This document shows, in pieces, positions 4,933 to 63,590 of a stretch of 64,000 bases of DNA. The stretch is taken from NCBI GenBank assembly GCA_039802605.1, contig JBDRWW010000001.1, positions 1 through 64,000 on the forward strand, in the 5' to 3' direction. Below the pieces are notes generated by a model that was not told the DNA's origin, did not search any database, and saw only the letters and a program-made list of their open reading frames with translations. This DNA comes from a candidate division WOR-3 bacterium (lineage in GTDB: Bacteria; Hydrothermota; Hydrothermia; LBFQ01). A program made the translations under genes and the position numbers. Numbering within the stretch: the first letter of the stretch is position 1; every line of letters begins with the position of its first letter.

Positions 4933-5964
4933 ATGTTGCTGTTAATCTCAATTCCCGCTTTTGCAAGGATGTATGGCGTTTCTTGTAATCTATGCCATAT
5001 TGCATACCCAAAGTTAAACAATTTCGGTGAGAATTTCGCGGATAACGGGTATTACTTCCCCGGCAAACAGGAGGAGGTATATTCCGATAATAACGATGAA
5101 GAATTAAATTTGTTTAATAAAATTCCCCTCTCGGTTCGATTTATGCAGTATCTAACGGCCGAATACCAAAAGGATAAAAATACCTTTGTTGATTTTAAAA
5201 GTCCATATTCGGCAAAAATATTAATGGGTGGGGCTTTTAACCAGAACTTAAACTTTTATTCTTATGTAATATTTGAAAAGGGGGAACCGCCGTTTTTTGA
5301 AGATGCTTGGGTTGATGTGCATAACTTCTTTGGATTACCTTTATCGCTAACACTTGGACAGTTTCAGATAGCGGATTTAATGTTTTTGAGGGAAACGCGC
5401 CTTACACAATCCGATTTTTATATATACAAACTAAGTCCATTTCCATTGACATACCACAGGGGTGCCATACTCGGAACACCATATTTTGATTTTGGCGTTG
5501 TAAATGGAAACGGTATAGGGGAAGGGTTTGACAACAATCCCCAGAAGTGGTATTTCACAAGGGTACCGATGCCTTTTAAATCTGGTATATTTGCCCTTTG
5601 GGGTGAAGATTATTTAAACGATAAATATACGAAAATATACAGGTTTGGATTTGATTGGAGAACCTCTTATAGGGATTTTTATCCGTTTTTACAGGTCTTG
5701 GTGGGGTTTGATAGGGATACACAAAACCTGTTTTATGGGGGATTCTTCGGTTTGGATGTCGTTAAAAACAAATTCGTTTATTCCTTCCTTTTTAACTATG
5801 TGGATGCCCCAAATAATTCATACTATTACCAACAAAGGCTTTTAAGGGGCGCGTTCAGGTTGTCTTACTACATATTGAGAAACCTGAAAACCTTTGCGGA
5901 GGTTGAAGGTGACGCGTTTTCAAATTGGGTAATTTTATACCTCGGATTTGATTACGCTTTTTAA
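4933..5964 (+). CDS. Cyc2-like fused monoheme cytochrome c / outer-membrane porin
   Basis: N-terminal IPAFARMYGVSCNLCHIAYPKLNNFGENF..NGY with CxxCH; beta-strand-rich body; C-terminal Phe (DYAF). Confidence 0.75.
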   Translation: MLLLISIPAFARMYGVSCNLCHIAYPKLNNFGENFADNGYYFPGKQEEVYSDNNDEELNLFNKIPLSVRFMQYLTAEYQKDKNTFVDFKSPYSAKILMGGAFNQNLNFYSYVIFEKGEPPFFEDAWVDVHNFFGLPLSLTLGQFQIADLMFLRETRLTQSDFYIYKLSPFPLTYHRGAILGTPYFDFGVVNGNGIGEGFDNNPQKWYFTRVPMPFKSGIFALWGEDYLNDKYTKIYRFGFDWRTSYRDFYPFLQVLVGFDRDTQNLFYGGFFGLDVVKNKFVYSFLFNYVDAPNNSYYYQQRLLRGAFRLSYYILRNLKTFAEVEGDAFSNWVILYLGFDYAF

Positions 5965-5993
5965 TGGGGTGGCCAACCTTATAATATCAACAT

Positions 5994-6659
5994 ATGCGTA
6001 TCCTCTTAACCTCAGGCGATGTGGAAAAGTCTGAAAATTATAAAAATTATCTCAAAGGCCTTGGAGCGGAGGTTGATGTTATTACACCTAACGATAAAAG
6101 GGATATATACCCAAATGAATACGACCTTTTGGTTTTGAGCGGGGGAAAGGATATAAATCCCAAGAGATATAACGAAGAAATTAAATACGAGAATGTTGAG
6201 GTGGATGAGGAAAGGGATGAATTGGAGTTTAACCTAATTGATGAATTTTTACGGAGTAAAAAGCCCATATTCGGGATTTGTAGGGGTTTTCAGGTTTTAA
6301 CGGTATTTTTTGGGGGGAGTTTATACCAAGACCTTGAAATGGAGGGTTTTAAAGCAATACATAGGGGAGAAAACGGCAAAGATAAGGAACACAAGGTTGT
6401 TTTTTCAGGGGTTTTTGAAGGGGTTTTCGGTTCGGAAGGGGTTGTTAATAGTAATCATCATCAGGGTTTAAAGGGATTTCCTGAAAGGTTGAAAGATGGT
6501 GAAATTTTGGCGGTTTCGGAGGATCACCTCGTTGAGGCTTTCATTTCCAAAAAATACAAGGTCTTGGCCGTTCAATGGCACCCGGAAAGGCATAAATCGG
6601 AAATATCGCTAAAACTTTTGGAAATAATAAAAGGGGAGCTCTCGTCGTGCGACGGATAA
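5994..6659 (+). CDS. Class I glutamine amidotransferase / peptidase C26 (PuuD-like)
   Basis: SGG.DI.P..Y, RDE.E, GICRGFQ, VNS.HHQG, VQWHPE. Confidence 0.9.
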   Translation: MRILLTSGDVEKSENYKNYLKGLGAEVDVITPNDKRDIYPNEYDLLVLSGGKDINPKRYNEEIKYENVEVDEERDELEFNLIDEFLRSKKPIFGICRGFQVLTVFFGGSLYQDLEMEGFKAIHRGENGKDKEHKVVFSGVFEGVFGSEGVVNSNHHQGLKGFPERLKDGEILAVSEDHLVEAFISKKYKVLAVQWHPERHKSEISLKLLEIIKGELSSCDG

Positions 6660-9599
6660 TCACCTTATTACCGAGAACCATTTTTCAACCTTTTCATCGT
6701 TAGCCCTTATCCTCAAAAGATAAACACCTACGGGCAACTTGGGTAATTCTATCTCGTGTTTGGTATATCCCTTAAAGTTTTGAGATTTTGAATATACCTT
6801 GCGCGCCTTTAAGTCAAATATCTCTATGGTGGCATAGGCATCCCCACCAAATACAACCCTCAACTTCGCTTGCCCCTTAGCGGGATTGGGATATATTATC
6901 ACATTATCCCTACTCAAAAACTTTATATCCAAAACCCTAACGGTCTTAACCTGCGATTCCCCATATGTGTAATCGTTATAGCCCCTTACAACAACACCGT
7001 GATCGCCAATATCAAACTCCCCAAACCTTATCCTAACATAAACCGTCTCAACGGGGCTGTCAAAGGTTCCATCCTTCGGTATCATTGAATACTTTATGTT
7101 TCCATCCACAATAGCCTCCGCAGATTTTATGGCATACCTTGATCTTATTACCGCCTCTATGTATGTGCTATCCGGTGAGTTCTTATATACGCTATCCGGA
7201 TTTAATTTCGTTATTATAACCTCAACGGTTGCGTTTGATACCACCGTAAACCTGAAGCTATCCCTTACCATCATATTGCCGCTTAGATCTACAAACGAAT
7301 CCACGACAACCTTTACCGTTGAATCATAGGGCAACATTACTGTGGGATTTACCTTTAATGTCCTCCTATCCTGCCAAGACCTTGTATAAGAATATTCCGA
7401 GGTATTTACAAGTACCTTTAAATACCCCCAAACGCTCGTATCCATATCCTCGCTGAATATTATCGTTATCGTTGGCGTAGGGGATACACCAAAGGCTCCA
7501 TTGTTGGGTTCCGTGTATGTTATATAAGGCCTTGTGGTATCCAAATATATAACCCAAGCGCTGTCATAAGAGGTATTACCACTGTAATCGTAACCATAGG
7601 CCTTTAATAGAAATGTGTCGGATGGAACATCCGGTATGTAAAAACACGCCGTGTCGGGATTATTAAAGGGTTCGTTCCTACAATCGGTAAAAGATGTGTA
7701 TGTCCGGGAATTAAAATACCAATCAACCCTCTGTATCCCCCTGTTATCCGATATATAAGCCCTTACAGGAATAGCCCTGTCATAAATTGTTATGGTATCT
7801 CCTGGTAGTATCGTAATCGTAGGAGGATTTCCATCCACAGACCCGGTGGTGAATGTTATAACCTTTGGTACCAAGTTTTTACCGTTTAATCCCATTATCC
7901 CACTCCTGAACTCTACCCTTACAGTCTCAGAAGTGGCAAAATCCGTATATGGGTTTAATACGCAATAGTCCAATTTCGGACAGCTCTTGTCAAAGGTATG
8001 AGCTCCGGAACTGCTACCAAATATACTAATGGTTGTACCGTTTATCGTTGTGGTATCCATATCCTTTGAAAACTGTACCCCTATGTTTGTATTGGCGGGA
8101 ACATTTACCTCTCCACTGTCGGGTGTGGTGAATACTATTACCGGATTTGATGTATCAACAGTCTGAGTTCTGAATGTTATGGTCTTAGGTATTAGACTGT
8201 TCGCAGAGGTATCCCTTATATACGATGTGAATATTACATATACCAATTCGTTAGGCCTGAAATCGGGATATGGGTCAAGAACGCAGAACACACTAAGGGG
8301 ACATGTCCTCGTAAAACTGTAATTCCTTAAACTGCTCCCATCCCAACCCCTTATTGTTATATTCGCATTGTCTATCGTCGTTGTATCCATTGGCTTTGAA
8401 AACCATACACCTATGTTTGCCGATAAAGGTACATCTACCTCCCCGCTGTCGGGCTGCGTTAATATTACCCTAGGCTTTGTAGTGTCGTATAAGGAAGGGC
8501 ATATATCGGCTGTACTGGATGAGAATGGGGATTTAGAATAATAGAATGGGGAAGTATATATAGTATCAGGAGAAAAACCGGTACTTGAAGTAACATAAAA
8601 AATTGGGCCAAGCGCGGGGACCGTAGAGAAAGTGTCAATATTGCAAGCCGTGAAGTCGTTATTCATCTTCATAAAATAAACCTTACCGCTATCCTGTTGG
8701 GAAAATATGGCTATACGGTTATCTATGTCAAAGTATAGGGTTGCCGTTCCCGAAATGCTAAACCTTTTGGCTTGCCTTAGGGAAGTGTCCCTTAAGTTTA
8801 GTAAAACTATAAAGCCGTAATACATAGTACTATCAACTAATATTCCCCAAACCGCAACGGTATCAATCCCCTTTGCCGATATACCCAACGGGATAAAAGT
8901 TCTAATCGAATGGTAAAGATATGTATTCTTGACGACAGATAATGAATCATAAAAAATGTATAACCCGTGCCCACCGTTGTGCGACAATGCCGCAACGAGG
9001 AAGGTATCGGCTGTATCAACTACCAAATAACGGTTAATTAAGCTGGGTATATTTAATTTTATCACATTTGAAAATTTAAAAATATAAACCGAATCACCGT
9101 ACATGGATACACCCCTACCGGAGCCCGAAAAAGACATACCCTTTACGATTGTGCCCGGTATAGAATAGTAATTGTATCCCAGGGAACTAGGAGTTCCAAT
9201 ATCATATCTTATTATAATACTATCTTCATCATAACCCCAAACCCTGTAATATAGTAAATACTTCTCGACATCAGTTATGGTTATATTCCCAGAAACGGGC
9301 GCTAGCTCATACCTTCCAACAAGGGTGTCCCGATAATAAATTATTATACCCCTGTCATATACCATTGCAACCGTGTCTTCTCCTAAAACCTTTGCGGATC
9401 TTATATGTTTCCCCGTATCCGGCAGGAATTTATCGGAGTAGATGATGTTGCCGCTTCTATCCACCTTTATAACTTTTATCGTATCATTTGTGGTATCTTG
9501 GCCAACTATGTAGTAGTATCCATTTTTTCCGGAGGCATAAATGTTGCCCCCTAAACCCCCTATGCTCTTTAAAAAATAATAACCAAAAATCCACATCAT
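6660..9599 (-). CDS. Secreted protein with repeated Ig-like (Big_5-like) domains and a T9SS type A-like C-terminal domain
   Basis: Three repeats of DT..P.(V/I)..T.P..G...V....I...FS..MDT; C-terminus IYPNP...IEIFDL.AR.V...LPVGVYLLRI. Confidence 0.8.
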   Translation of the reverse strand: MMWIFGYYFLKSIGGLGGNIYASGKNGYYYIVGQDTTNDTIKVIKVDRSGNIIYSDKFLPDTGKHIRSAKVLGEDTVAMVYDRGIIIYYRDTLVGRYELAPVSGNITITDVEKYLLYYRVWGYDEDSIIIRYDIGTPSSLGYNYYSIPGTIVKGMSFSGSGRGVSMYGDSVYIFKFSNVIKLNIPSLINRYLVVDTADTFLVAALSHNGGHGLYIFYDSLSVVKNTYLYHSIRTFIPLGISAKGIDTVAVWGILVDSTMYYGFIVLLNLRDTSLRQAKRFSISGTATLYFDIDNRIAIFSQQDSGKVYFMKMNNDFTACNIDTFSTVPALGPIFYVTSSTGFSPDTIYTSPFYYSKSPFSSSTADICPSLYDTTKPRVILTQPDSGEVDVPLSANIGVWFSKPMDTTTIDNANITIRGWDGSSLRNYSFTRTCPLSVFCVLDPYPDFRPNELVYVIFTSYIRDTSANSLIPKTITFRTQTVDTSNPVIVFTTPDSGEVNVPANTNIGVQFSKDMDTTTINGTTISIFGSSSGAHTFDKSCPKLDYCVLNPYTDFATSETVRVEFRSGIMGLNGKNLVPKVITFTTGSVDGNPPTITILPGDTITIYDRAIPVRAYISDNRGIQRVDWYFNSRTYTSFTDCRNEPFNNPDTACFYIPDVPSDTFLLKAYGYDYSGNTSYDSAWVIYLDTTRPYITYTEPNNGAFGVSPTPTITIIFSEDMDTSVWGYLKVLVNTSEYSYTRSWQDRRTLKVNPTVMLPYDSTVKVVVDSFVDLSGNMMVRDSFRFTVVSNATVEVIITKLNPDSVYKNSPDSTYIEAVIRSRYAIKSAEAIVDGNIKYSMIPKDGTFDSPVETVYVRIRFGEFDIGDHGVVVRGYNDYTYGESQVKTVRVLDIKFLSRDNVIIYPNPAKGQAKLRVVFGGDAYATIEIFDLKARKVYSKSQNFKGYTKHEIELPKLPVGVYLLRIRANDEKVEKWFSVIR

Positions 9600-9602
9600 T
9601 TT

Positions 9603-17927: not shown

Positions 17928-17958
17928 ATTATAAGGGTGGGAATTTCTACCTTAAAAT
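17928..17958. promoter_or_regulatory. Back-to-back -10 boxes (OMP gene / sodC)
   Basis: TATAAT (-) 17928-17933 and TAAAAT (+) 17953-17958, 9 and 8 nt before their ATGs. Confidence 0.65.
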
Positions 17959-20208: not shown

Positions 20209-20305
20209 TTGGATATTATAAGGGTGATAGGGCTTTGCTATACCTTGAAGTCCTCGGGATGTTTTGAAAGGTATAAACCTTTCAGCCTTATAATTTTGTG
20301 CTACG

Positions 20306-48480: not shown

Positions 48481-48546
48481 ACACCTTTAATTCTAAGGCT
48501 GTTATTCTTCATATGGGGATACCAACAACCTTATAATATCAAGTGA

Positions 48547-51621: not shown

Positions 51622-53502
51622 ATGGAGAAGGTTATAGGGATAGATTTGGGTACTACAAACTCCGTGGTTGCGGTGGTTGAAGGTGGGGAACCGATTGTTA
51701 TACCTAATAGGCAGGGCGAGAGAATAACCCCATCCGTTGTTGCTTTTAAAGAAAACGGGGAAATATTGGTGGGTTCCCCGGCAAAAAGGCAGGCGATAAC
51801 AAACCCCTTAAATACGGTTTTCTCAATCAAGAGGTTTATGGGTAGGACATATGCAGAGGCGAAACGATCTGGGGATGTTGATAGGGTTCCGTACAAAGTC
51901 GTGTCCGGACCCAACGATAGGGTAGAGGTTGAAATTCCGGCCTTAAAGAAAAGGTTCACCCCGGAGCAGATATCGGCTTTTATACTTTCGGAGTTAAAAA
52001 AGGCGGCCGAGAACTTTTTGGGTACCGAGGTTCAAAAGGCCGTTATAACCGTTCCGGCTTACTTTAACGACCCCCAAAGGCAGGCCACCAAAGATGCGGG
52101 TTTAATAGCGGGGTTTAAAGAGGTTATAAGGATTTTACCGGAACCCACGGCGGCCGCTTTGGCTTATGGCCTCAACAAAACGGATAAATCCCTTAAAGTT
52201 GCCGTTTATGACTTGGGAGGTGGCACATTTGATATATCAATTTTAACGCTTGTTGAGGGTGCCTTTATAGTTAAGGCTACGCATGGGGATACCCATTTGG
52301 GTGGGGACGATATAGACCAAAAGATAATAGATTGGCTTATGGAGGAGTTTTACAGGGAAACCAAAATAGACCTTTCTAAGGATCCCGCAGCCTTGCAGAG
52401 GTTAAAGGAGGCGGCCGAAAAGGCCAAAAAGGAACTCTCATTCCAAAGTGAAACGCTGATAAGCCTGCCCTATATAGCCTTTGACCCCGAAGCCAAGGTC
52501 GGTTTAAACCTTGAAAGGGTTTTAACGAGGGCAAGGCTGGAGGCCATGGCCGAACCCTTAATAAACAGAACTGTTGAGCTTATGAGGCAAGCCCTTGATG
52601 AAGCCGGGTTTTCCAGAAACGAGATAGATGAGGTTATACTGGTGGGTGGTCAAACCCGTATGCCTTTGGTACAAAAAGTTGTTGAAGAGTTCTTCGGTAA
52701 AAAACCACATGCGGGAATAAACCCCGATGAAGTTGTGGCCATAGGGGCTGCAATTCAGGCCTCAATAGCAATAGGTGAGATGAGGGACAAAAAGGACATA
52801 GTCCTGGTTGATGTCGTTCCCCTATCCCTAGGAGTTGCAACCCTTGGCGATATATTTGATGTTGTAATACCCAAGAACACCCCTATACCCGTAAAGAAAT
52901 CAAAAATTTATACCACGGCATACGACAACCAAACGGTTGTAACGGTTGAGGTTTATCAGGGTGAAAGGAAAATAGCATCACAAAACAGGCTCTTGGGTAG
53001 GTTTGACCTTACGGGTATCCCACCCGCCCCAAGGGGGGTACCGCAAATAGAGGTAACCTTTGAACTGGATACAAACGGAATATTACATGTATCCGCCGTT
53101 GAAAAATCCACCGGCAAGAAGGCTGATATAAGGATACACGCGAGGACCGGTTTGACGGAGGAGGAAATTCAAAGGATGATTGAGGAAGCGGAGAGGTATA
53201 GGGAAGAGGATGAGAAGAGGGCGAGGTTGGCCGAGTTGAGGAATCAAATAGACGCGTACATATACGAGGTTGAAAAGGCCAGAAAAGAATTTGAGAATAA
53301 ATTAACGGAAGATGAAAAGAAGAGGATAGATGAGGGTATAAACAGGTTGAGGGATGTAATGAGTAGCAACGATGAAGAAAGGATGAGGAAAGAGTTTGAG
53401 GAGTTTCAAAAGGTTTGGAATACGATAATTTCAAGGATTTACCAACAAACCACTGGCAAACAAAACCCACCGGATGAGGAGGGCCCAACCATAGAGGCCT
53501 AA
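51622..53502 (+). CDS. dnaK: Chaperone DnaK (Hsp70)
   Basis: GIDLGTTNS, VITVPAYFND, DLGGGTFD, LVGGQTRMP, GIPPAPRGVPQIEVTF; start at ATG 51622, 8 nt after TAAAAT. Confidence 0.93.
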   Translation: MEKVIGIDLGTTNSVVAVVEGGEPIVIPNRQGERITPSVVAFKENGEILVGSPAKRQAITNPLNTVFSIKRFMGRTYAEAKRSGDVDRVPYKVVSGPNDRVEVEIPALKKRFTPEQISAFILSELKKAAENFLGTEVQKAVITVPAYFNDPQRQATKDAGLIAGFKEVIRILPEPTAAALAYGLNKTDKSLKVAVYDLGGGTFDISILTLVEGAFIVKATHGDTHLGGDDIDQKIIDWLMEEFYRETKIDLSKDPAALQRLKEAAEKAKKELSFQSETLISLPYIAFDPEAKVGLNLERVLTRARLEAMAEPLINRTVELMRQALDEAGFSRNEIDEVILVGGQTRMPLVQKVVEEFFGKKPHAGINPDEVVAIGAAIQASIAIGEMRDKKDIVLVDVVPLSLGVATLGDIFDVVIPKNTPIPVKKSKIYTTAYDNQTVVTVEVYQGERKIASQNRLLGRFDLTGIPPAPRGVPQIEVTFELDTNGILHVSAVEKSTGKKADIRIHARTGLTEEEIQRMIEEAERYREEDEKRARLAELRNQIDAYIYEVEKARKEFENKLTEDEKKRIDEGINRLRDVMSSNDEERMRKEFEEFQKVWNTIISRIYQQTTGKQNPPDEEGPTIEA

Positions 53503-55655
53503 AATTCGCCTGAAACGCTTAAACCGAAGTTCCAAGAGAATTTTTGCATTTTATCGTAATACGCGTATAAATGGCCCGATATATTAATTTCGTAAAGGTT
53601 TTTCTGCGGATAAAAACCCAGTAAGACTACCGGCCCTTCGGGTTTTATATATACCTCATCACCTTTCTCCCCGTAATAATTCCTGTAATAAAGGCTTAGC
53701 GAAAAGGGTTTTCTTATCCTGATAAAAGGGGAAAGTGCCCAAGAAGTTGATTTCAGAACTTCAAGACCAAAAAATTTATACCCAAACGATAGGGAATTGT
53801 ATTCTATATACTTACCAAAAACCCTTTTTAAGTTCTCGTATTCCATAAACCAATTGTAGTTGGCGAACCCGTTAAAAACCCTGTTATATCTGAACTCACC
53901 CGTTTCCACATCCCTATAAAGGTCAAATTTCACACCCACACTATCCCTACCAAACCAAGCATTCAAGTTTATGGTTTTTAAATCCTTAAAATCCGTCCTC
54001 AAAGATGCGTTTAGGTATTCCAAAACCGATATTCCTATATCGTATATTGCTGTATCCGTGGGGAAGTAAACCATTTCCCTTTTATAACTCCCAAAGGGTT
54101 TTGGGTAAAACATCCCCAAAGAATCCCTTTCGTAATCCCCCCATCCCTTACCCACATATATAAACCTCTCCTCCTTTTTAAAACTTATGGATGAAGATAT
54201 GTCCAAACGGATAAACTTCCAAATTAGACCGAGTATAAAGGACCTCCCCATTTTGCTAACCCCGTAGTTTAAAACCAAACCTTCGCCAATAAAACCTATG
54301 TCATAAGCCAAAAAACCGTCGTCGTACCTCTTAATCGTTCCAACAAGTTTTTCCGATTTACCATTAATCCCATAAGATCTACCAAATGTATCCTCCGCCA
54401 TAAATCCCCCCGCAAATAGGCCTTTTATAAAACCGCCAAATTCGTACCTGTTCCAAATACTTGTCCTTAAAAGGTTTGCATAAAACCCTCTATCCATTCC
54501 AAGTTTTATATCCCCGGAATACACGAAATCGTTTTCAAAAAAGCCCCTCAAAAATTTACCATTCAATCCCTCAAAATTCAAACCAATACCGAGATTTATG
54601 TTGTAATTCCCCGTATTTACTCCGGTTGCGGTATAGGGAATATAGGGGTTATAACCAAAATTCCCAAAGGAAAATGCGTATATTTTTTCCCCAATGGTGT
54701 AGTTCCACCTACCGCCCATGTTCCCCCGATCGTTAAAGTTTATGGATAGGTAATCCCCACCCCTCTCAAACCCCACTTCACCCATATACTCCCCATTATT
54801 CCCTTCTATTGGTTTTATGGTATAGTCCCCTCCACTTCCCACAAACACAAACCTATCACCGAGGAATTTATAATCCCCGTTTTTAACATTGACAAAATCG
54901 CACATCAAATCCCCGTTCAAAACATCTATGTAAAATGTATCCTTTGAAAACCTGTAATCCCCTTTTGATGTCCTTATACACCCTTTAAAACTTTCAAACC
55001 TTTGAGGGGTTATACCGCTTCCCCTTATGAAAAATCCCCCAACCCTTATTACCCCATAAGAGAATAGGTTTTGGCTACCCGTAGATTCCTGGTATTCAAC
55101 CGTAAGGATGTCGCCATCTTCAAATTCCCGTGTTATATATATGGCCCCATTTTTAAGGACATAACCGCTTTTTAGCACTCTGCCGTTTATATATACCCTG
55201 ACGGAATTCTCAACGACACCCTTGGAAGGTATAACATAAGGTCCGTTAAAACCCTTAAACAACCTAAAATTAACCCTTTTAACATCCGAAAACGACCTTA
55301 AAAACTTCAAAGTATCCCCTTTATAAAAAATCCCCAAACCTTCCCCCCTTACCCTTCCCCTTACAAAATCCTCGCTTAATATCCCACCAAATAAACCCAT
55401 ATAATCCTTGAAAATTTGTACCCTAAAATCCTGCAGGTTTTCTATCCTCTTAACCTCGCCGCTAACACCCGCAACATCTCTTATGGCTAAACCCAATGCC
55501 CACCCGTATATATCACCCTTAATTTCAGCATATAACCCATCGGTGCCAAAGTTGTAAAAACCACTCCAACCTTTTAGGGTTAAAGAGGTATCCCATTCAA
55601 AATAGGAAAATGAATCCGGGGTTAAAGGTTTTAGAAGGTATAACTCGTAAAACAA
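53499..55655 (-). CDS. Putative outer-membrane beta-barrel protein with a SprA-like segment
   Basis: Gly/aromatic strands and terminal Phe; GPY......V.NSVRVYINGRVL..GY....G.I.......IL.VEYQ resembles a SprA-type insert. Confidence 0.5.
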   Translation of the reverse strand: MFYELYLLKPLTPDSFSYFEWDTSLTLKGWSGFYNFGTDGLYAEIKGDIYGWALGLAIRDVAGVSGEVKRIENLQDFRVQIFKDYMGLFGGILSEDFVRGRVRGEGLGIFYKGDTLKFLRSFSDVKRVNFRLFKGFNGPYVIPSKGVVENSVRVYINGRVLKSGYVLKNGAIYITREFEDGDILTVEYQESTGSQNLFSYGVIRVGGFFIRGSGITPQRFESFKGCIRTSKGDYRFSKDTFYIDVLNGDLMCDFVNVKNGDYKFLGDRFVFVGSGGDYTIKPIEGNNGEYMGEVGFERGGDYLSINFNDRGNMGGRWNYTIGEKIYAFSFGNFGYNPYIPYTATGVNTGNYNINLGIGLNFEGLNGKFLRGFFENDFVYSGDIKLGMDRGFYANLLRTSIWNRYEFGGFIKGLFAGGFMAEDTFGRSYGINGKSEKLVGTIKRYDDGFLAYDIGFIGEGLVLNYGVSKMGRSFILGLIWKFIRLDISSSISFKKEERFIYVGKGWGDYERDSLGMFYPKPFGSYKREMVYFPTDTAIYDIGISVLEYLNASLRTDFKDLKTINLNAWFGRDSVGVKFDLYRDVETGEFRYNRVFNGFANYNWFMEYENLKRVFGKYIEYNSLSFGYKFFGLEVLKSTSWALSPFIRIRKPFSLSLYYRNYYGEKGDEVYIKPEGPVVLLGFYPQKNLYEINISGHLYAYYDKMQKFSWNFGLSVSGEF

Positions 55656-56336
55656 TCAGAACTCTCGTACCACCCCAAGATTTATGGTTGGGGAATTTGG
55701 TATTAAAGGCGCGGGATTTAGGAGGTTGATGTTTATAATGTTTTCCGTGCTTATTTCAATAGATGGGATACTATCGGGTTTATAAGGGTAGTTATACGGA
55801 TAGTTTTCCCCGTACGCATATGAAAATCCGATAAGGAATGTGTAGGGTTTTGAGATCTTTTTGAGGGTTATCGAAAAGGGGGTGTAGTTTGTGTTCAATT
55901 TGTATATAAGGGTATCCAAGGAAGGATTGCCGGTATTCGGATAACTGACCTTTGCATTCGGTGAAGGCGTTATACGATAATCTAAAACTATATTTTCGGG
56001 TAATATTTCTGCAAGGATTCCCCCAAGCGCGCCAAAGACGATATCCCCCAAACTAACAGGCGATGTTCTCAAAACCCTTTCCTCATAAACCTCCCAAGCA
56101 ATGGACGATACAAGGGGTATTATTACCGCACCTTTACCCCTTATATCCGTTATCCTGATAAACCAATAGTACATAAACATATGGGCGGGATAGGATTGGG
56201 TTACAAAATCCCCAAAGTCCTTTGAGGGTGGGAGTACGGCTACACCAAAATCACCCATTCCAACCCTATAAGCCTCCATCCTTTTACCGAAAGCATCCAC
56301 ATAAGTTGCCTTTTGTACGAATGCCATCCACCACAT
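55656..56336 (-). CDS. Hypothetical envelope protein (YfiM/DUF2279-like segment)
   Basis: IAWEVYE...SLGDIVFGALG; terminal Phe. Confidence 0.5.
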   Translation of the reverse strand: MWWMAFVQKATYVDAFGKRMEAYRVGMGDFGVAVLPPSKDFGDFVTQSYPAHMFMYYWFIRITDIRGKGAVIIPLVSSIAWEVYEERVLRTSPVSLGDIVFGALGGILAEILPENIVLDYRITPSPNAKVSYPNTGNPSLDTLIYKLNTNYTPFSITLKKISKPYTFLIGFSYAYGENYPYNYPYKPDSIPSIEISTENIININLLNPAPLIPNSPTINLGVVREF

Positions 56337-56339
56337 CCC

Positions 56340-57179
56340 CTATATTTTATGGCTGTAAGATATGTTTTTCCAGTAATTTTTCATAAGTAGTGCATCCCCT
56401 TCAATGTTCGGGCTTTCTGAGACTATGAACCCGTCGGCCTCAAATTCATAAAGGGTTTCCAAAATATCCTTCCAATTCAAATCCGATTCTTCGAGGTTTA
56501 GGTGGTGTTTCTCCCCTTTTGAAGAGTATGCTATTCCCGACATATGTATGTGCATGTTTTTTAAACCGTTTTCACCTAGGTATTCCTTTATTTTTTCCAG
56601 AACCCAAACAAATTCCCCCTTTGTATTAAACTTACCACCACTCCTCGCGTGTAAATGGGCAAAATCAAGGCAGGGTAAAACCCCTCCTATCTCCGCCGAA
56701 AGTTCAAGCAACTCTTCAAGGGAACCGTATTGCGTAGGCTTTCCCGTGGTTTCCGGTCTTAGAATAACGGATATACCTTCGGATTTCAGCCTTTCGGATA
56801 GATCTTTGAGAATCCCTAAAACCTTATTATGAACATCCTTTGGGTCATCTCCCAGATAATAGGCGGGATGAAAGCATATGTTCTCCGCGCCCGCCATATA
56901 TCCGATTTTTGCGGATTGGTATATCCTCTCAATAGAAGCCTTTAACTTATCCCTTTCTTTGGCGTTTAAATTTATCCAATACGGGGCGTGGACGGAAAGG
57001 GACAAACCGTTCTTTTCCGCTATCTCCTTCACCCTCTTAGCCTTATCCTCCTTCATATTAACACCCCTAACAAATTCCAGCTCCATCCCGTCTAAGCCCA
57101 ACTCCTTAACCCTTATCAACCCATCTTCCGTAGAACCGCTCCTACTTGAAATTGGAACACCCGCCGTAAAGAATTTCAT
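56340..57179 (-). CDS. nfo: Endonuclease IV-like AP endonuclease (TIM barrel)
   Basis: SVHAPYWINL, FHPAYY, PETTGK...G..EE, CLDFAHLHAR, HIHMSGI, HL.L, ESP.IE.DA. Confidence 0.88.
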   Translation of the reverse strand: MKFFTAGVPISSRSGSTEDGLIRVKELGLDGMELEFVRGVNMKEDKAKRVKEIAEKNGLSLSVHAPYWINLNAKERDKLKASIERIYQSAKIGYMAGAENICFHPAYYLGDDPKDVHNKVLGILKDLSERLKSEGISVILRPETTGKPTQYGSLEELLELSAEIGGVLPCLDFAHLHARSGGKFNTKGEFVWVLEKIKEYLGENGLKNMHIHMSGIAYSSKGEKHHLNLEESDLNWKDILETLYEFEADGFIVSESPNIEGDALLMKNYWKNISYSHKI

Positions 57180-57181
57180 AA

Positions 57182-58687
57182 TTATCGGACTATTACCTTC
57201 TCCCTCTTACCCCCATACTCTACAATATAAACACCCCTCTTTAAACCAACAAAACCTTTCCCTTTTATCTCCGCAACCTTTATCCCCGATGCATTGTATA
57301 CCTTTACAAAACCTTCACCCAAAACCCTTATTCCACCCTTTACGGCCTCAACCCTTATAATTCCCTCGGTTTCCTCCTTAACCGCTATCGGATCATCATA
57401 ACCGAGTATATCACAAGTCCCAACATTGTTTGACCTGAAAACATATAGGTTTGGGGCATCCATTTCACCCCTGATTATCAATTCAACACAGGTATCACCA
57501 TCCACATCCGCTATTACGGAATAGCCCGATGCGCAACACCCACTAACGGGACCACCATAAGAATAACTCCACAACCATGCACCGTTGGATGCACTATAAA
57601 CATCCAAATAACCATCGTGATTTGCAAACAATACCTCGTATCCCGGGTTCGTCATATCAAAATCGCCTACGGTTATTGGGGCATGCGAATGAACTTCATA
57701 AGCCGTGGTTATTGCCCATATAACCGCCCCGGTACCGCCATCTATGGCGGCAAAGTTCCACCAATAATCCGCAGTGAATATATCCCTTGTCCCGTTTCCG
57801 TTTATGTCGGGACCTATAACAACAGATTCACGACCGTCAAATGAAAGCTCCGAATATCCCGAAACACACCAGGCCAAGGAACCAGTCCCGTTTATACGAC
57901 ATGTGTAATTGTTGTAAAAATTAACAAAGATTTCCATTATTCCATCGCCATCAACATCTTCAACGGCGGGTGCGGAACCGTATGAATATCCGGTTGAAAC
58001 ACTCCACTTTATGCCACCATCCGTTCCCCTTAAAGCGTAAACGGTCCCGGAGTTATCGGCCACTATAACCTCTATTTGCCCATCGTTATCAACATCACCA
58101 ACGGCAACCGCCGCATCGGATACGACTGTCGTATTAACCCACCTTGTCATTCCATCAGACCCGCGAAAGGCGTAGGTGCCATTCCCCGTAGCAACTACCA
58201 CCTCCTTTTGGCCATCAAGGTTTATGTCATACACCCTAGGAGAACCGTTATATGCATACCCAACATACTGACTCCATATAATTGTTCCATTTGTCCCTTC
58301 AAGGACATAAAGATAACCGTCATAGGATGTGAAGGCAACTTCCATATTTGGATCGCCATCTATTTCGTCCAATGCAGGGGTTGAATATATAGAACCACTT
58401 GTTGTATATGTCCAGCGAATTGTCCCATCGGGACCGTTGAAACACCAAAGCGTCCCCCCATCATCGCCAACGACAACATCTGGAACACCGTCGTTTGTTA
58501 TATCAAGAACGGAAGGCCCGGAATATATGCCGGTTGTAGCGGAAAGGGATCTGAACCAAGCCACCACTACGGATGAAGGCCCGGAAAAACGGGCGGTTGC
58601 CATCGCCCTACCCCTACCCAATATATCCCTCTTTAAACCCCCCCAATATTGAGCAGGAGGCATTTGCGCAAATATTACCCAAATCAT
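57182..58687 (-). CDS. Secreted FG-GAP/PQQ-like repeat beta-propeller protein with T9SS-like tail
   Basis: Repeated D.D.DG..E(V/I) and LY.L.G.DG...W units; C-terminal VYNASG.KV...GVYIV..G....KVIVR. Confidence 0.85.
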   Translation of the reverse strand: MIWVIFAQMPPAQYWGGLKRDILGRGRAMATARFSGPSSVVVAWFRSLSATTGIYSGPSVLDITNDGVPDVVVGDDGGTLWCFNGPDGTIRWTYTTSGSIYSTPALDEIDGDPNMEVAFTSYDGYLYVLEGTNGTIIWSQYVGYAYNGSPRVYDINLDGQKEVVVATGNGTYAFRGSDGMTRWVNTTVVSDAAVAVGDVDNDGQIEVIVADNSGTVYALRGTDGGIKWSVSTGYSYGSAPAVEDVDGDGIMEIFVNFYNNYTCRINGTGSLAWCVSGYSELSFDGRESVVIGPDINGNGTRDIFTADYWWNFAAIDGGTGAVIWAITTAYEVHSHAPITVGDFDMTNPGYEVLFANHDGYLDVYSASNGAWLWSYSYGGPVSGCCASGYSVIADVDGDTCVELIIRGEMDAPNLYVFRSNNVGTCDILGYDDPIAVKEETEGIIRVEAVKGGIRVLGEGFVKVYNASGIKVAEIKGKGFVGLKRGVYIVEYGGKREKVIVR

Positions 58688-58693
58688 GTTAAT

Positions 58694-58721
58694 ATTATAC
58701 TCCTGATTGATTTTTTGTCAA
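58694..58721 (-). promoter_or_regulatory. Consensus sigma70 promoter TTGACA-N16-TATAAT
   Basis: Perfect -35 (58716-58721) and -10 (58694-58699) hexamers, 6 nt before ATG 58687. Confidence 0.8.
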
Positions 58722-58729
58722 GGCAAAAA

Positions 58730-59911
58730 TCACAAACCCCCTTTCCTCTCAATGGCCTTGAATATCACATACTCCTGAATCTCGTTGGTTCCCTCAAAGA
58801 TCCTGTTTATCCTCGCATCCCTATACATTTTCTCAACGGGGTAATCCTCTATGTATCCGGCCCCACCGTGTATTTGAACGGCCAAATCAACCACCCTATC
58901 CAAGACCTCGGATGCAAAAACCTTTACTATCGAAGCCTCCCTAATAATATCATATCCCATATCCGCCATCCAAGCCACCCTATAAAGCAAACTTTCAAGG
59001 GTAAATATGTCTATTGCCATTCTCGCGAGGTAGTGTTGTATAAGTTGGAAGTTTTTTATGGGCTGCCCAAACTGTACCCTTTCGTTTGCAAATTTCCAAG
59101 CAACCTCAAACGCCTCCTTTGCACCCCCAAGGCAACCGGCTCCTAAGGTGATCCTACCTATGTCAAGGGTTTCCATCGCAATCTTAAAACCCTGCCCAAC
59201 CCCACCTAAAACATTTTCTTCCGGAACTTCAAGGTCTTCAAGTACAACATAGGCGGTTCCCGATGCCTTTATCCCCATCTTCTTTTCCGTTTTCATAACC
59301 TTCCAACCCTTCCATTTGGTTTCCACTATAAAGGCTGTTATGCCGCCATAAGCACCGAGAGATTTATCGTTTGCGGCAAATACAACGGCTATATCGGCGA
59401 TGTTCCCGTTTGAAACATAGAGTTTTGAACCGTTTAAAATCCACCTATCGCCCTTTTTAACCGCGGTCGTTTGTATATGTTGGGCATCGGAACCCGCATT
59501 CGGTTCCGTAAGGGCGAAGCACCCAATATATTCACCCGTGGCTATCTTTGTTAAATACTTTTCTTTCTGCTCTTTATTCCCGCCTATGTTTATAGCACCA
59601 CCGCACAAACCCGTTGATGCCCCAAGTAGCACCGCCACGGATGCATCACCCCTAGTTATCTCCTCTTGTAATACCGCATTTCCCAATTCGCCGAGGCCAG
59701 CGCCTCCATATTCTTCGGGTAAAAGGATACCAAAAAATCCCTGCTCCGCCATCTTTTTTATTAGCTCTTGGGGTATTTCTTCCCTTTTTTCCATCTCCCG
59801 CGATATGGGTTTTATTTCCCTATTCACAAACTCCCTAACCATTGCCCTAAGGTCTTCAAGGGTCTCAACCTTATCCTTGGGTAAGTTCAAAAATTCAAGG
59901 GCGCTTTTCAT
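58730..59911 (-). CDS. Acyl-CoA dehydrogenase
   Basis: PEEYGGAG, FALTEPNAGSDA, LNGSK..VSNG, R.QFG.PI, QIHGG.GY, RIFEGTNEIQ; start MKSALEF, 8 nt after TAGAAT. Confidence 0.94.
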   Translation of the reverse strand: MKSALEFLNLPKDKVETLEDLRAMVREFVNREIKPISREMEKREEIPQELIKKMAEQGFFGILLPEEYGGAGLGELGNAVLQEEITRGDASVAVLLGASTGLCGGAINIGGNKEQKEKYLTKIATGEYIGCFALTEPNAGSDAQHIQTTAVKKGDRWILNGSKLYVSNGNIADIAVVFAANDKSLGAYGGITAFIVETKWKGWKVMKTEKKMGIKASGTAYVVLEDLEVPEENVLGGVGQGFKIAMETLDIGRITLGAGCLGGAKEAFEVAWKFANERVQFGQPIKNFQLIQHYLARMAIDIFTLESLLYRVAWMADMGYDIIREASIVKVFASEVLDRVVDLAVQIHGGAGYIEDYPVEKMYRDARINRIFEGTNEIQEYVIFKAIERKGGL

Positions 59912-59981
59912 AACCCTGTATTCTACTCCCGTTTTGCTTATCAAAGTGTGGGAATTTTTTCACCTTTATAATATCCACTTC

Positions 59982-60054
59982 GGGCCGTTAGCTCAGTTGG
60001 TAGAGCACCGGATTTTTAATCCGGGGGTCGCAGGTTCGATTCCTGCACGGCCCA
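59982..60054 (+). tRNA. tRNA-Lys(TTT), CCA not encoded
   Basis: Acceptor stem GGGCCGT/ACGGCCC, anticodon arm CCGGA-TTTTTAA-TCCGG, T-loop TTCGATT, discriminator A followed by TTT. Confidence 0.95.
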
Positions 60055-60057
60055 TTT

Positions 60058-61311
60058 TTGGCCAAAATTGTTGTTAAAGGCGGTAACGGGTTAAAGGGTT
60101 CCGTTAAAATAAGCGGTGCAAAAAATTCCGCCTTGGCATTAATACCCGTATCAATCCTGATCGATGGAAATGCGGAATTCGTAAATGTACCAAATGTCGA
60201 GGATGTCAGAACTATGCTTGAACTCTTAAGCGTTATGGGCTCTGAGGTTAGTTTTGATAAGGGTAATGTGTTTATCAATACATCCAACATCAAAGAGCCC
60301 TTTGCCCCTTATGAGTTTGTGAGCAAGATGAGGGCCTCTATATATGTTTTGGGCCCCCTTTTGGCAAGGTTTAAAAGGGCCAAGGTGGCTTTACCCGGGG
60401 GATGTGCCTTTGGCCCAAGACCTATAAACTTCCACTTGGAGGGTTTGAGGAAAATGGGGGCGGAAATAGAGATTGAACACGGGTATATAATAGCAAAGGC
60501 CAAAGAACTGAGAGGTGCGTATTTAACATTTGAAAAGAAATCAGTAGGGGCAACCATACACCTTATGACCACTGCGGTCTTTGCAAAAGGGGAAACGGTT
60601 ATAGATAACGCCGCAATAGAACCGGAAGTGGTGGATGTGGCCAAATTTTTAAAGAAATGTGGGGCAAATATTGAGGGGGAGGGGACCGATACCATTAGGG
60701 TTTATGGAGGGGGTTTCCTTAAAGGTGGTATAAAATACGGGGTAATACCCGATAGGATAGAGGCGGCAACCTTTATTATAGCATCCTTAATAACAAACGG
60801 GGAGGTTAGGGTTGAAGGCATAAGGCCAAAGGATATGGGAGCGGTAATATCAAAGCTTATGGAATGCGGGGGGCGTTTTGAAATCGGAGAGGATTATGTA
60901 TTGGTTAAACCTTCGGGAAGGTTGGAGGCCAAAGATGTTGAAACCGCCCCATTTCCCGGATTCCCAACGGATGTACAACCGCAATATATGGCCCTTATGA
61001 GTGTTTCTAATGGGAAATCCTTGATAAAGGAGGGTATATATCCCGATAGGTTTAAGCATGCCTTTGAACTTATAAGGTTGGGGGCTAATATAAAGGTTGG
61101 GGAAGGGTTTGCCATAGTTGAGGGGGTTGAATCCCTGAGTGGGGCACCGGTTGTGGGAAGCGATCTCAGGGCAACGGCATCTTTGGTTTTGGCCGGTCTT
61201 GTCGCAAAGGGTATAACGGAGGTGGATGGATACGAGCATATGCTAAGGGGTTATGAAAACTTTGAGGAGAAAATTAGAAATTTGGGGGCAGAATTGGAAG
61301 TCATTTTTTGA
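60058..61311 (+). CDS. murA: UDP-N-acetylglucosamine 1-carboxyvinyltransferase
   Basis: ISGAKNSAL, MRAS...LGPLLAR, LPGGCAFG.RP, PDRIEA.T, PGFPTD.Q, DLRA; TTG start. Confidence 0.97.
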   Translation: MAKIVVKGGNGLKGSVKISGAKNSALALIPVSILIDGNAEFVNVPNVEDVRTMLELLSVMGSEVSFDKGNVFINTSNIKEPFAPYEFVSKMRASIYVLGPLLARFKRAKVALPGGCAFGPRPINFHLEGLRKMGAEIEIEHGYIIAKAKELRGAYLTFEKKSVGATIHLMTTAVFAKGETVIDNAAIEPEVVDVAKFLKKCGANIEGEGTDTIRVYGGGFLKGGIKYGVIPDRIEAATFIIASLITNGEVRVEGIRPKDMGAVISKLMECGGRFEIGEDYVLVKPSGRLEAKDVETAPFPGFPTDVQPQYMALMSVSNGKSLIKEGIYPDRFKHAFELIRLGANIKVGEGFAIVEGVESLSGAPVVGSDLRATASLVLAGLVAKGITEVDGYEHMLRGYENFEEKIRNLGAELEVIF

Positions 61312-61346
61312 ACAACCGTTCAAATAACAGCCTTAAAATTTCCGGT

Positions 61347-63590
61347 ATGATATACCTTTTGGCGTATTACATAAGTGGTTATATTTATGGGGAGGATGGG
61401 AAACCCCTAGAGGCGGCAACGGTTATTCTTAAAAGATTACCGGATAGTTCAAATGCGGGCGGAACATATTCCGAAAAAGATGGTTTTTTCAAGATAATAA
61501 ATGTTCAACCGGGAAGGTATGTCTTAATAATAAAATTCGTGGGGTACGAGGATTTTTCAAGGGTGGTTGAGGTTTCGGATAGGGACGTTGATTTGGGGAG
61601 GATAGTTTTAAAGGAAAAAGCCATAAGGGTTGAGGAAGTAGAGGTAAAGGCGGAAGCACCCAAGATAACATACGAAGAGGGGAAAAGGGTTATAAGGTTT
61701 ACCGATGAAATAGTATCAAAGGGCGGTAATGCCTTAGAGGCTTTAAAGAATGTACCGGGTATAACCGTGGATAACAATGACAACATAAAAATTAGAAATT
61801 CCGAAAACATCACGCTTTATATAAACGGTAGGCCTACAATCCTGAGCCCTTCCGAGGCTTTAAGACAAATACCCGCCTCATCCATAGAAAAAATTGAAAT
61901 TATAACAAACCCATCGGCCAAATACGAGGCCGAAGGAAATGTTATAATGAATATCGTCCTTAAACAGAGCCAAGATAGGGGATTCTCCGCATCCTTAATG
62001 GGTAGGTTGGGAACTTATGATAACCTCGGCTTGAACGCATCTACGGGTATAAATACGGGTAAAACAAAAATTGTCCTAAGCGCAAACTATTTCAGTTTCA
62101 AAAGGATTATGGAAAGTGAAATAAAAGCCGAGCATCCTATAGCTTATGAGAGCGATGGAGAAAGGTACTTTAATATGAAACCTACGGGTATAAGGGGAAG
62201 TGTTGAACACCGCCTAACCAATAACGATATAGCAAATATTGAGGTGGATTTTGGTAGATGGAACTTCCTAATGGGTTGGTTGATGAATTATCCTTCCTAT
62301 AAATCGGATATGGATGTTAATATGGGAGGATTTAGGGGTTCCCTTTCGGTGGGGTATGTTAAGAAATTCCTAAAAAACCACAAGGTTGAGGGTATGGTTT
62401 TTTACGCCAAAAGGATGGGAAAGGAAAATACCGAAAGCTATTTCGGCGATTCTTTGGGTTTCAAGAGGACATCCGATATCTCAGGCAATAGGTGGAGGTT
62501 TAAACTGGACTATTCTTGGGATATAGGAGATAAGAGGAGGTTTGAGATGGGTTATCAATGGGATATTAATGAAAACTCGGATTCCCTCGTTTTTTACGAT
62601 TATAAAAACGGAAGCTTTATATTGGATACAACGGGAAATTATAGTATGAATGATGTTATAAACGCGGGCTATTTTATGTATTCAAACGCTTTGGGTATAT
62701 TCTCATACCAGTTGGGTTTGAGGGTGGAGTACGACGACAGGGTGATAAACGACGGAAATAGGGAATATCCCTTTAAATCGACGGATTTGTTCCCCTCTTT
62801 AAGTCTATCCTTCAATCCGGATATAATGAACTCTTACAGCATTACATATTCCCGTAGGATTTCAAGGCCGATGGGTTGGATGTTGGTGCCATTCCCAAGG
62901 CAAATAGATAACCTAAACTATCAAAGGGGAAACCCGAACTTAAAACCGGAATATACCCATTCCTTTGAAGCGGGTTATCAGAGGATGTTTAGACTTGGAA
63001 ACATTCAAATTGAAGGCTTTTATAAGAGGAGCGAAAACAAAATGGATTTCTATCCGTATTACGACACCTCCTTGCGTTCCATAGTATATACTTGGGAAAA
63101 TACGGGCATAGCCACACTTTCCGGTGCGGAAATATTTGTATCCTTGCAGCCATTTAAGCTTTTAAAGTTGGATTTTACGGTTGATGTCTATGATTATAGG
63201 GTGTATTACAAAGGGTTTTCAAGGAGCTTGGCCTACGACTTAAAGGGTAACCTTAGCGTAGGTTATGGCCCTATGGGTTTGCAGATAAGCGGTAGGTACA
63301 ATTCCCCGAGGGTTAGCGCAAGGGGCAAGGTCTTGGGTAGTTATGCCTTTGATATGGGTTTAAGGTTGCCTATTACAAGGAATATTTTCTTTATCGCCCA
63401 GTTTGACGATTTTATGAAATTGGACAAAGAGGTTTCTGAAATCAAAGATGAAAATTTAAAGATGACAACCACAACTTTGCGGAAATGGCCTTCAATTTCG
63501 GTTATGTTATTCTTTGATTATAACAATTTCAGAAAAATGCAACAAAGGGAGAAGAGGGAGCCCTTAGAGGAAGAGGTACCCATGTTTTGA
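61347..63590 (+). CDS. TonB-dependent receptor-like outer membrane beta-barrel with carboxypeptidase-regulatory-like N-domain
   Basis: ISG....DG.PL..ATV, L..VPGITVD, IE.IEIITNPSAKY.AEG, GNPNLKPE; start MIYLLA, 7 nt after TAAAAT. Confidence 0.88.
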   Translation: MIYLLAYYISGYIYGEDGKPLEAATVILKRLPDSSNAGGTYSEKDGFFKIINVQPGRYVLIIKFVGYEDFSRVVEVSDRDVDLGRIVLKEKAIRVEEVEVKAEAPKITYEEGKRVIRFTDEIVSKGGNALEALKNVPGITVDNNDNIKIRNSENITLYINGRPTILSPSEALRQIPASSIEKIEIITNPSAKYEAEGNVIMNIVLKQSQDRGFSASLMGRLGTYDNLGLNASTGINTGKTKIVLSANYFSFKRIMESEIKAEHPIAYESDGERYFNMKPTGIRGSVEHRLTNNDIANIEVDFGRWNFLMGWLMNYPSYKSDMDVNMGGFRGSLSVGYVKKFLKNHKVEGMVFYAKRMGKENTESYFGDSLGFKRTSDISGNRWRFKLDYSWDIGDKRRFEMGYQWDINENSDSLVFYDYKNGSFILDTTGNYSMNDVINAGYFMYSNALGIFSYQLGLRVEYDDRVINDGNREYPFKSTDLFPSLSLSFNPDIMNSYSITYSRRISRPMGWMLVPFPRQIDNLNYQRGNPNLKPEYTHSFEAGYQRMFRLGNIQIEGFYKRSENKMDFYPYYDTSLRSIVYTWENTGIATLSGAEIFVSLQPFKLLKLDFTVDVYDYRVYYKGFSRSLAYDLKGNLSVGYGPMGLQISGRYNSPRVSARGKVLGSYAFDMGLRLPITRNIFFIAQFDDFMKLDKEVSEIKDENLKMTTTTLRKWPSISVMLFFDYNNFRKMQQREKREPLEEEVPMF

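Follow-up and report, generated by a model that had tools for sequence, protein, structure and literature searches.

Short, charge-free hydrophobic N-termini as candidate minimal export signals in a WOR-3 class in which no signal recognition particle was found

The first 64,000 nt of contig JBDRWW010000001.1 (assembly GCA_039802605.1, candidate division WOR-3), below called the window, contain 52 open reading frames (ORFs) according to a simple ORF caller. The source genome has a size of 1.65 Mb in 23 contigs, a GC content of 41%, and is rated 90% complete. Like its relatives of the same class, which have genome sizes of 1.2-2.3 Mb, it belongs to a hot-spring bacterium that is apparently free-living. 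An earlier reading of the window, here called the original prediction, proposed that several exported proteins begin with a very short hydrophobic stretch (a “tag”) in place of a classical signal peptide. All eleven short hydrophobic N-termini that it named were found again; ten start with ATG and one with GTG.

Four of the eleven genes are located on the forward strand. Gene 4933-5964 encodes a Cyc2-like protein with the six-residue tag MLLLIS (4933-4950), which is directly followed by IPAFAR (residues 7-12) and then by CXXCH (residues 18-22). The hallmarks of Cyc2 are an N-terminal CXXCH after a PxFAR-type motif and a beta-barrel thereafter. The gene starts with ATG, an in-frame TAA lies 3 codons upstream, and a -10-type box TATAAT (4919-4924) is found 8 nt before the ATG, a layout that is kept at orthologous loci. 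The Cu/Zn superoxide dismutase SodC (17967-18458) carries the tag MLILTLLT (17967-17990). Its Sod_Cu domain begins 27 residues past the Met, the upstream stop is 61 codons away, and a CCTTAAAAT box (17953-17958) lies 8 nt upstream of the ATG. A TPR protein (32910-33938) has the tag MLWFLL (32910-32927), a stop 3 codons upstream and a GGGGTGGAAG run before the ATG, and overlaps the end of the upstream gene. The TonB-dependent receptor (61347-63590) has the tag MIYLLAYY (61347-61370), a stop 23 codons upstream and a CCTTAAAAT box (61334-61339) 7 nt upstream; its CarboxypepD_reg domain begins right after the tag.

The other seven genes are located on the reverse strand. A predicted cargo protein of the type IX secretion system (T9SS) with Big_5 and Por_Secre_tail domains (6660-9599) starts with MMWIFGYYFL (9570-9599), and the stop of the upstream gene precedes the ATG by 1 codon, after a GGGAGGA run. 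The PLD-like nuclease (18451-20208) starts with VLTVLSLTI (20182-20208) and has a TATAAT box (20215-20220) 6 nt upstream. Here the tag is present as predicted, but its first residue, written as Met by the original prediction, is encoded by GTG (read as Met); 43 open codons without any earlier start codon precede it. LptD (36709-38784, LptD_2 and LptD models) has the tag MINLLIS (38764-38784) and a stop 26 codons upstream. A protein with a T9SS-type C-terminal domain (45539-46714; TIGR04183, 26.5 bits) has the tag MLLLLSLSI (46688-46714) and a stop 18 codons upstream. In the remaining three genes Gln follows the tag: a BamD/YbgF-like TPR protein (46717-48480; MLWVFIG, 48460-48480; stop 2 codons upstream; TAGAAT at 48490-48495, 9 nt upstream), a 226-residue protein without a family (55656-56336; MWWMAFV, 56316-56336; stop 1 codon upstream; TAAAAT at 56344-56349, 7 nt upstream), and an FG-GAP or BamB-like beta-propeller (57182-58687; MIWVIFA, 58667-58687; TATAAT at 58694-58699, 6 nt upstream, with TTGACA further upstream).

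Nine of the eleven proteins have a Pfam match, and six of these belong to exported or outer-membrane families, i.e. Big_5 plus Por_Secre_tail, Sod_Cu, LptD_2, YfiO/BamD-type TPR, FG-GAP/PQQ_2, and the TonB receptor barrel plus plug. The FlgD_ig match was below the cut-off, PLDc_2 and the plain TPR families are uninformative about location, and the Cyc2-like and MWWMAF proteins have no match in Pfam or NCBIfam. Other Pfam-matched ORFs of the window are mostly cytoplasmic enzymes with polar starts (LeuRS, RNase R, PPDK, DnaK, MurA).

Five starts (4933, 9599, 32910, 48480 and 56336) are thus preceded by an in-frame stop at a distance of 1-3 codons. Close upstream stops had been predicted for four of these five and for 58687, and at the latter the stop was found 10 codons upstream. 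A -10-type hexamer lies 6-9 nt upstream of seven of the eleven starts (4933, 17967, 20208, 48480, 56336, 58687 and 61347); the remaining four are within operons, behind Shine-Dalgarno-like runs.

For the genome as a whole, a tag was defined as Met followed by at least four of five residues from LIVMFWY, with no charged residue within the first six. A stricter version additionally required a polar residue within 11 residues. Because of the way in which this set was built, the stretch from the upstream stop to the tag contains no ATG, GTG or TTG. The tag class, like that of classical signal peptides, is based on simple heuristics and includes false positives; with this proviso, 174 of 1615 ORFs (10.8%) of the source genome fall under the looser definition, compared to 364 of 8411 internal Met positions (4.3%). 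Tag starts are therefore commoner than chance. The stricter definition retained 156 of 1603 ORFs.

The tags have a characteristic composition. Their profile is M, then I/L/M/V, then W/L/I/F, and then three or four aliphatic residues, with the consensus M-[ILMV]-W-[ILV]-[ILV]. Trp is found at residue 3 in 22% of the tags and in 1.3% of the background, a 17-fold enrichment. In 116 of 156 tags, 6-9 residues precede the first polar one, and as Met1 is counted here, the hydrophobic core comprises about 5-8 residues. There is no positively charged n-region: the mean number of Lys and Arg in residues 1-8 is 0.10 for the 156 tags versus 1.37 for the other ORFs. Gln occurs at residues 7-10 in 25% of the tags versus 7% of the other ORFs (3.6 times), and Ala, Ser or Gly stands before it in 22 of 45 tags, compared to a background of 22%. 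In tag proteins, the stretch of residues 9-20 has a net acidic composition (K+R 1.31, D+E 1.66), and in the other proteins it is net basic (1.58 and 1.33, respectively).

The 22 ORFs whose C-terminal domain is Por_Secre_tail or FlgD_ig were taken as an unbiased test set. Fifteen have tag starts, three have a tag at an internal Met, three have a classical-like signal peptide, and one is ambiguous. BamA-, SurA-, Skp-, TolB- and DsbA/TlpA-like proteins also carry tags, an assignment made by reading the sequences, with no family test. Lipoproteins behave differently: a lipobox was found behind 40 classical signal peptides with Lys or Arg plus a hydrophobic stretch, versus three tag-type starts. 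Among non-lipoproteins, a count by eye gave about 150 tags but only about a dozen classical signal peptides, and tags are thus the dominant signal form of non-lipoproteins in this genome. The tags differ from three other established signal types. The lipobox Cys of signal peptidase II substrates is not a feature of tags, as only the three starts mentioned have it. A Tat twin-arginine motif, which precedes the hydrophobic core, is barred by the definition, since this keeps Lys, Arg, Asp and Glu out of the first six residues. Type IV pilin signals have a short polar leader that ends in Gly and a hydrophobic helix of about 20 residues behind it. The tags do not fit this, as their hydrophobic run has, by definition, at most 11 residues and ordinary soluble or barrel domains come next.

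Both signal types coexist, as had been predicted from a classical signal peptide within the window. This signal peptide, MKRVLFILPFAFSPAFA (17868-17918, reverse strand), is the sole classical one in the window and is encoded by an 87-codon ORF (17655-17918) that has a TATAAT box 9 nt upstream and no family match. Elsewhere in the genome, on contig C7 at about 56-66 kb, three neighbouring genes (starts at 56145, 59349 and 62665) have the rare classical non-lipoprotein type. One of them is TonB-dependent-receptor-like, as judged from its N-terminus, the other two have T9SS-type tails, and the trio may be a recently acquired block.

Genome-wide, fewer than 10 open codons precede the start in 118 of the 174 tag genes, and fewer than five in 81. 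A TAnnnT box is found 5-12 nt upstream of 45% of the 174 tag genes and of 31% of 1432 other genes. A box at 6-9 nt precedes 439 of 1603 ORFs, cytoplasmic genes included, and has the conserved context (A/G)CCTTAnAAT followed by ACCC. We think that the CCTTAnAAT box looks like the -10 element of leaderless mRNAs. Leaderless mRNAs are known from Deinococcus-Thermus and Actinobacteria. The likeness consists in a -10-type box that ends 6-9 nt before the start codon. A leaderless mRNA begins at the start codon or within a few nt of it, and a box at this distance is compatible with such a beginning. In contrast to those groups, the lineage studied here has its own extended box CCTTAnAAT-ACCC with a weak -35 element, and the layout is not specific to tag genes.

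The Cyc2-like proteins allow a direct comparison of tags and classical signal peptides at the same site. In 11 genomes, representing both genera of the family and one genome of the sister family (G014), tags of 6-7 residues directly precede the motif [IV]P[AT]FAR. With the exception of G014, TATAAT, TACAAT or TAGAAT is found a few nt before the start codon at these loci. All 11 orthologues have Ser, Ala or Gly at the end of the tag. The codons of the tag vary while its hydrophobicity is kept, which indicates that selection acts on the tag peptide. In contrast, the orthologues of four genomes (G012, G016, G022 and G028) have classical signal peptides of at least 20 residues before the same motif, and classical signal peptides also precede a PAFAR-type motif in a distant match in G039 and in a paralogue in G003. 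This agrees with the original prediction, which had contrasted the normal-length signal peptide of Cyc2 homologues with the six residues present here.

LptD gives a similar picture. Tags of 6-7 residues ending with Ser or Ala precede the conserved FRGGY strand in 12 of 12 members of the family, and the corresponding N-termini comprise about 8-14 residues in other families. No Lys or Arg precedes the hydrophobic run in 28 of 29 informative loci of the class. A crude count of such starts that is not confined to LptD mixes in cytoplasmic and membrane proteins; it is noisy and is read as a trend only. Outside the class, n-region-less LptD was found in three of three genomes without detectable signal recognition particle (SRP) and in four of seven SRP-positive genomes; the other three SRP-positive genomes have an n-region with Lys or Arg. 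BLAST pairs revealed tags common to the source genome and to each of G005, G014 and G012. In three pairs G014 has a classical or lipoprotein signal peptide where the source genome has a tag.

For comparison, tag frequencies were estimated from samples of 127-200 kb per genome (34 kb only for G022). The values are 9.7% of ORFs in the source genome, 12.2% in G005 of the same family, and 17.6% and 6.8% in G014 and G012, respectively, of the same order. Five further genomes of the class have values of 8.3% (G019), 8.3% (G027), 6.5% (G020), 2.9% (G022, 1/35 ORFs) and 1.6% (G024, 2/127 ORFs). Elsewhere in the phylum, the fractions are 7.5% and 4.5% in the SRP-less genomes G041 and G080, and 4.5% and 2.6% in the SRP-positive genomes G046 and G043, respectively, in which the matches mostly look like cytoplasmic or membrane proteins. 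These frequencies, together with the LptD signals across the phylum, suggest that tags are a phylum-wide tendency that is extreme in the order of the source genome. The conservation of length and hydrophobicity in family-level relatives, together with the classical signal peptide at the same Cyc2-like site in four other genomes, supports the proposal that the tags are a minimal export signal that is derived and specific to this lineage.

The original prediction also expected that such signals would imply modified Sec, signal peptidase or targeting machinery. The source genome encodes LepB, SecY, SecA, YidC, TatC and peptide deformylase. LepB has one N-terminal membrane segment and the conserved sequence boxes, which we take to hold the catalytic Ser and Lys, and it is nearly identical between tag-rich genomes and G022, a genome with a classical signal peptide on its Cyc2-like protein. 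A modified signal peptidase is thus not supported, because LepB is canonical and shows no conspicuous difference between the two. The suggested dependence on retained formyl-Met is not supported either, because peptide deformylase is present; Def was found in eight of nine genomes searched. SecB was not found in five of five genomes, but one of these is SRP-positive, and its absence is therefore uninformative.

The SRP itself was searched for with the M domain of Ffh in all 41 genomes of the class, and with the other components in smaller sets. The M domain was found in none of the 41 genomes, versus 14 of 14 control genomes, and the SRP54 GTPase domain yielded only weak P-loop matches in the class. 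In contrast, most other classes of the phylum have Ffh-sized and FtsY-sized matches with E-values of about 1e-70. When the six-frame translation of the source genome was compared with profiles built from six Ffh and ten FtsY sequences of the phylum, nothing was found (best E-value 0.007). The 4.5S RNA was detected in none of nine SRP-protein-negative genomes, but in six of six SRP-protein-positive genomes, and a long SRP RNA in none of 13 genomes. Four of the SRP-less genomes of the class (G020, G024, G030 and G037) are rated 100% complete, and the class includes closed or nearly closed assemblies (G020 in 3 contigs, G032 in 4). Outside the class, four families of the phylum (f12, f25, f27 and f33) also lack true SRP54 matches.

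A divergent Ffh and a substitute for the SRP were also considered and rejected. A 430-residue ORF with a weak SRP54 P-loop match might have been a divergent Ffh, but we read in it the zinc-finger and KNRFG motifs of RadA/Sms. A ribosome-binding tail of YidC that could replace the SRP was not seen, as the domain match ends 7 codons before the stop. Mutants of Streptococcus mutans live without an SRP. Here, the apparent absence spans a whole class of hot-spring bacteria that are probably free-living and have genomes of 1.2-2.3 Mb. The loss of the SRP is also not the simple cause of the tags, because LptD lacks an n-region in four of seven SRP-positive genomes of the phylum, and the SRP-less G024 has few tags.

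SecY of the source genome (locus L090, contig C2, 107416-108426) differs from that of E. coli at several functional positions, given here in E. coli numbering. The pore-ring residue 187 is Ala or Ser in all ten members of the order and in four of four members of family f3, and Ala in the source genome. Six other families (16 genomes) have Ile at this position, f10 has Val, and the SRP-positive G049 has Ala. Residue 288 is Gln in all ten members of the order and in families f5 and f6. The C4-loop residues Arg255/Arg256 are lost in family f1 and are Leu/Ser in the source genome. Residue 405 is Arg in 31 of 31 members of the class versus Ser or Thr in four SRP-positive genomes and E. coli. As read from the alignment, these changes follow the phylogeny, and they are observations rather than evidence for a mechanism. 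The expectation of altered machinery is thus partly borne out: an SRP was not found in the class and SecY has Ala or Ser at residue 187, but SRP loss is not the cause of the tags, and the SecY changes are confounded with phylogeny. In G011 (contig C77, locus L231) a second, divergent SecY was found, which is probably from another organism; this assembly has a contamination of 7%.

Taken together, the tags are probably the complete N-termini of exported proteins, and would act as minimal Sec signal peptides for signal peptidase I that lack an n-region. A textbook signal peptide comprises about 18-25 residues and has an n-, an h- and a c-region. In the proposed scheme, the charged n-region was lost, and the free alpha-amino group of Met1, together with the frequent Trp at residue 3, would be the sole features on the cytoplasmic side. 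The hydrophobic core would be shortened to about 5-8 residues, and the cleavage region would be kept, i.e. a small last tag residue, often followed by Gln. SecA would bring the protein to SecYEG without an SRP, and the canonical LepB would then cut off the tag. Lipoproteins keep full-length signal peptides, presumably because the signal peptide has to stay embedded in the membrane for Lgt and LspA. The tags share with classical substrates of Sec and signal peptidase I their N-terminal position on periplasmic, outer-membrane and T9SS proteins, a hydrophobic core, a small last residue, and the same site in orthologues. They differ from them in the missing basic n-region and in their total length of typically 6-9 residues.

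Cleavage by LepB is likely on indirect grounds: the last tag residue is small in 23 of 23 orthologues (11 Cyc2-like and 12 LptD proteins), Gln often follows the tag, and LepB is canonical. The invariant small residue also argues against the suggestion of the original prediction that the tag may be uncleaved. In Bacteroidetes, the “Q-rule” states that Gln is the first mature residue after cleavage by signal peptidase I. The tags resemble this in that Gln is enriched immediately behind the tag, in many cases preceded by Ser, Ala or Gly, and in that T9SS cargo is present. However, Gln of Bacteroidetes comes after a full-length signal peptide. The E. coli leader peptidase accepts peptides that span only about -7 to +2, which is also in favour of cleavage.

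Several observations weigh against the interpretation of the tags as minimal Sec signal peptides. Working hydrophobic cores comprise about 7-15 residues, and with its 5-8 residues the core of the tags is at or below the length that is known to work in E. coli. Cleavage before Gln is not universal, because a small residue precedes Gln in 22 of 45 cases. The definition of the tags picks SurE in the window, a false positive, and also 2.6-4.5% of the ORFs in control genomes. The -35 hexamer is only weakly enriched, and the box may therefore be something other than a promoter; in either case, it is a marker of the start codon that does not depend on the ORF. Lastly, in-frame upstream starts are possible in three genes of the window, i.e. 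GTG 17937 for SodC, TTG 38835 for LptD, and TTG 61308 for the TonB receptor, in the frame of which CarboxypepD_reg begins at residue 22. On the basis of the surrounding sequence these upstream starts are not favoured: the CCTTAAAAT boxes lie 8 and 7 nt before the ATG of SodC and of the receptor, respectively, and for LptD the Shine-Dalgarno-like AGGTAGAAAGGGAGAA precedes the ATG and the short start is common to 12 of 12 family-level orthologues.

A more far-reaching reading is that the whole class lacks the SRP and that most non-lipoprotein exports of the order carry 6-9-residue, charge-free tags that are read by a targeting step other than the textbook recognition by SecA or the SRP, i.e. by a naturally unlocked SecY or a new receptor. 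We entertain it only tentatively. If it were true, both the minimum that is accepted for export signals of bacteria and the view that the SRP is universal would have to be revised.

Two rival explanations are each unlikely. In the first, the tags target or open the Sec channel but stay uncleaved as a hydrophobic stub, or the mature domains carry the targeting information and the channel is permissive. PrlA (SecY) suppressors of E. coli export proteins with defective signal sequences, and a permissive, naturally PrlA-like channel would explain the tags. The exchange of one pore-ring isoleucine for Ala or Ser in the tag-rich order and the Gln at residue 288 in all its ten members are compatible with this, as is the finding that only 22 of the 45 Gln-containing tags have a small residue before Gln. 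However, the invariant small last residue would have no obvious reason if there were no cleavage, and a canonical LepB is present. The SecY changes track phylogeny, Ala187 also occurs in the SRP-positive G049, and family f5 has Ile187 yet 8.3% tags. In contrast to the PrlA mutants, the variation here is natural and lineage-wide, and the substitution is not known to be among their alleles.

The second explanation, which we regard as equally improbable, assumes an undescribed targeting route in an SRP-less lineage, e.g. a dedicated receptor or a coupling of leaderless-mRNA translation to the membrane, with the tag consensus as the recognition motif and not as a shortened signal peptide. It would fit the failure to find Ffh, FtsY and 4.5S RNA in the class, although other classes of the phylum have all three, as well as the 17-fold enrichment of Trp at residue 3 and the higher frequency of the leaderless layout at tag genes (45% versus 31%). 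No candidate receptor was found, although none was searched for. Moreover, tags are also found behind Shine-Dalgarno-like sequences, n-region-less LptD occurs in SRP-positive genomes of the phylum, G024 is SRP-less and yet has few tags, and the tags resemble the final residues of classical signal peptides of the same genome.

It is very improbable that the starts are mis-assigned and that longer leaders arise by non-canonical upstream initiation, recoded stops, or assembly frameshifts in A-rich n-region codons: at least 10 open codons precede 56 of the 174 tag genes, GTG or TTG codons lie upstream of three window genes, and the genomes are metagenome assemblies, but stops lie 1-3 codons upstream in five window genes and fewer than five codons upstream in 81 of 174 tag genes, orthologues keep the box-plus-ATG layout rather than coding sequence upstream, at least 18 genomes that were assembled separately have these short starts, out-of-frame Met-Lys/Arg leaders occur no more often upstream of tags (41/156) than upstream of other ORFs (440/1429), and the nearby stops include TAA, which we judged an unlikely target for recoding in a genome of 41% GC. 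Frameshifted or recoded leaders were rejected on the grounds of the close stops, the layout conserved in orthologues, and the lack of an excess of out-of-frame leaders.

In the literature searched, which for the papers on WOR-3 and Caldipriscus comprised the main text, no published description of such signals or of the absence of an SRP in this group was found. In textbooks, signal peptides have three parts and a length of about 20 residues and are nearly universal, and prediction tools are presumably built on this view. If the tags are export signals, signals of 6-9 residues would challenge the textbook minimum for bacterial export. Exported proteins of WOR-3/Caldipriscus-type genomes would then likely be under-predicted, and reconstructions of their metabolism and cell envelope would therefore be distorted. 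The lineage would also offer a natural test of the minimal information needed by the Sec channel and by signal peptidase I, and the contrast with lipoproteins suggests that the two peptidase routes differ in what they minimally require. According to the abstract of PMC7844537, the SRP is found throughout living organisms. If its absence in the class holds, the question arises of how membrane proteins are targeted there. These questions may be testable, because a cultured WOR-3 isolate exists according to PMC12285271. In streamer biomass, Caldipriscus accounts for about 6-22% of the community (PMC11696919).

Two RNA libraries cover parts of three tag genes (55656-56336, 57182-58687 and 61347-63590) within 54001-63900 with contigs that have no defined ends, and one of these contigs spans 55884-56256, inside the MWWMAF gene. 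A library fragment with adapters on both sides (61285-61421) crosses the junction of murA and the TonB receptor gene. If it is derived from RNA, read-through transcripts would exist beside the putative internal promoter; carry-over of DNA is possible as well. The 87-codon ORF with the classical signal peptide is followed by a 124-codon ORF (17284-17658, reverse strand) with an overlap of 4 nt, and neither has a family match. The region 17284-17918 may contain two small genes or a single gene that a frameshift has split. Two further ORFs of the window may encode envelope proteins with unusual N-termini, i.e. a 718-residue ORF (53499-55655, reverse strand) that starts with MFYELYLL and has no family match, and a TamB-like ORF of 1069 residues (22873-26082, forward strand).

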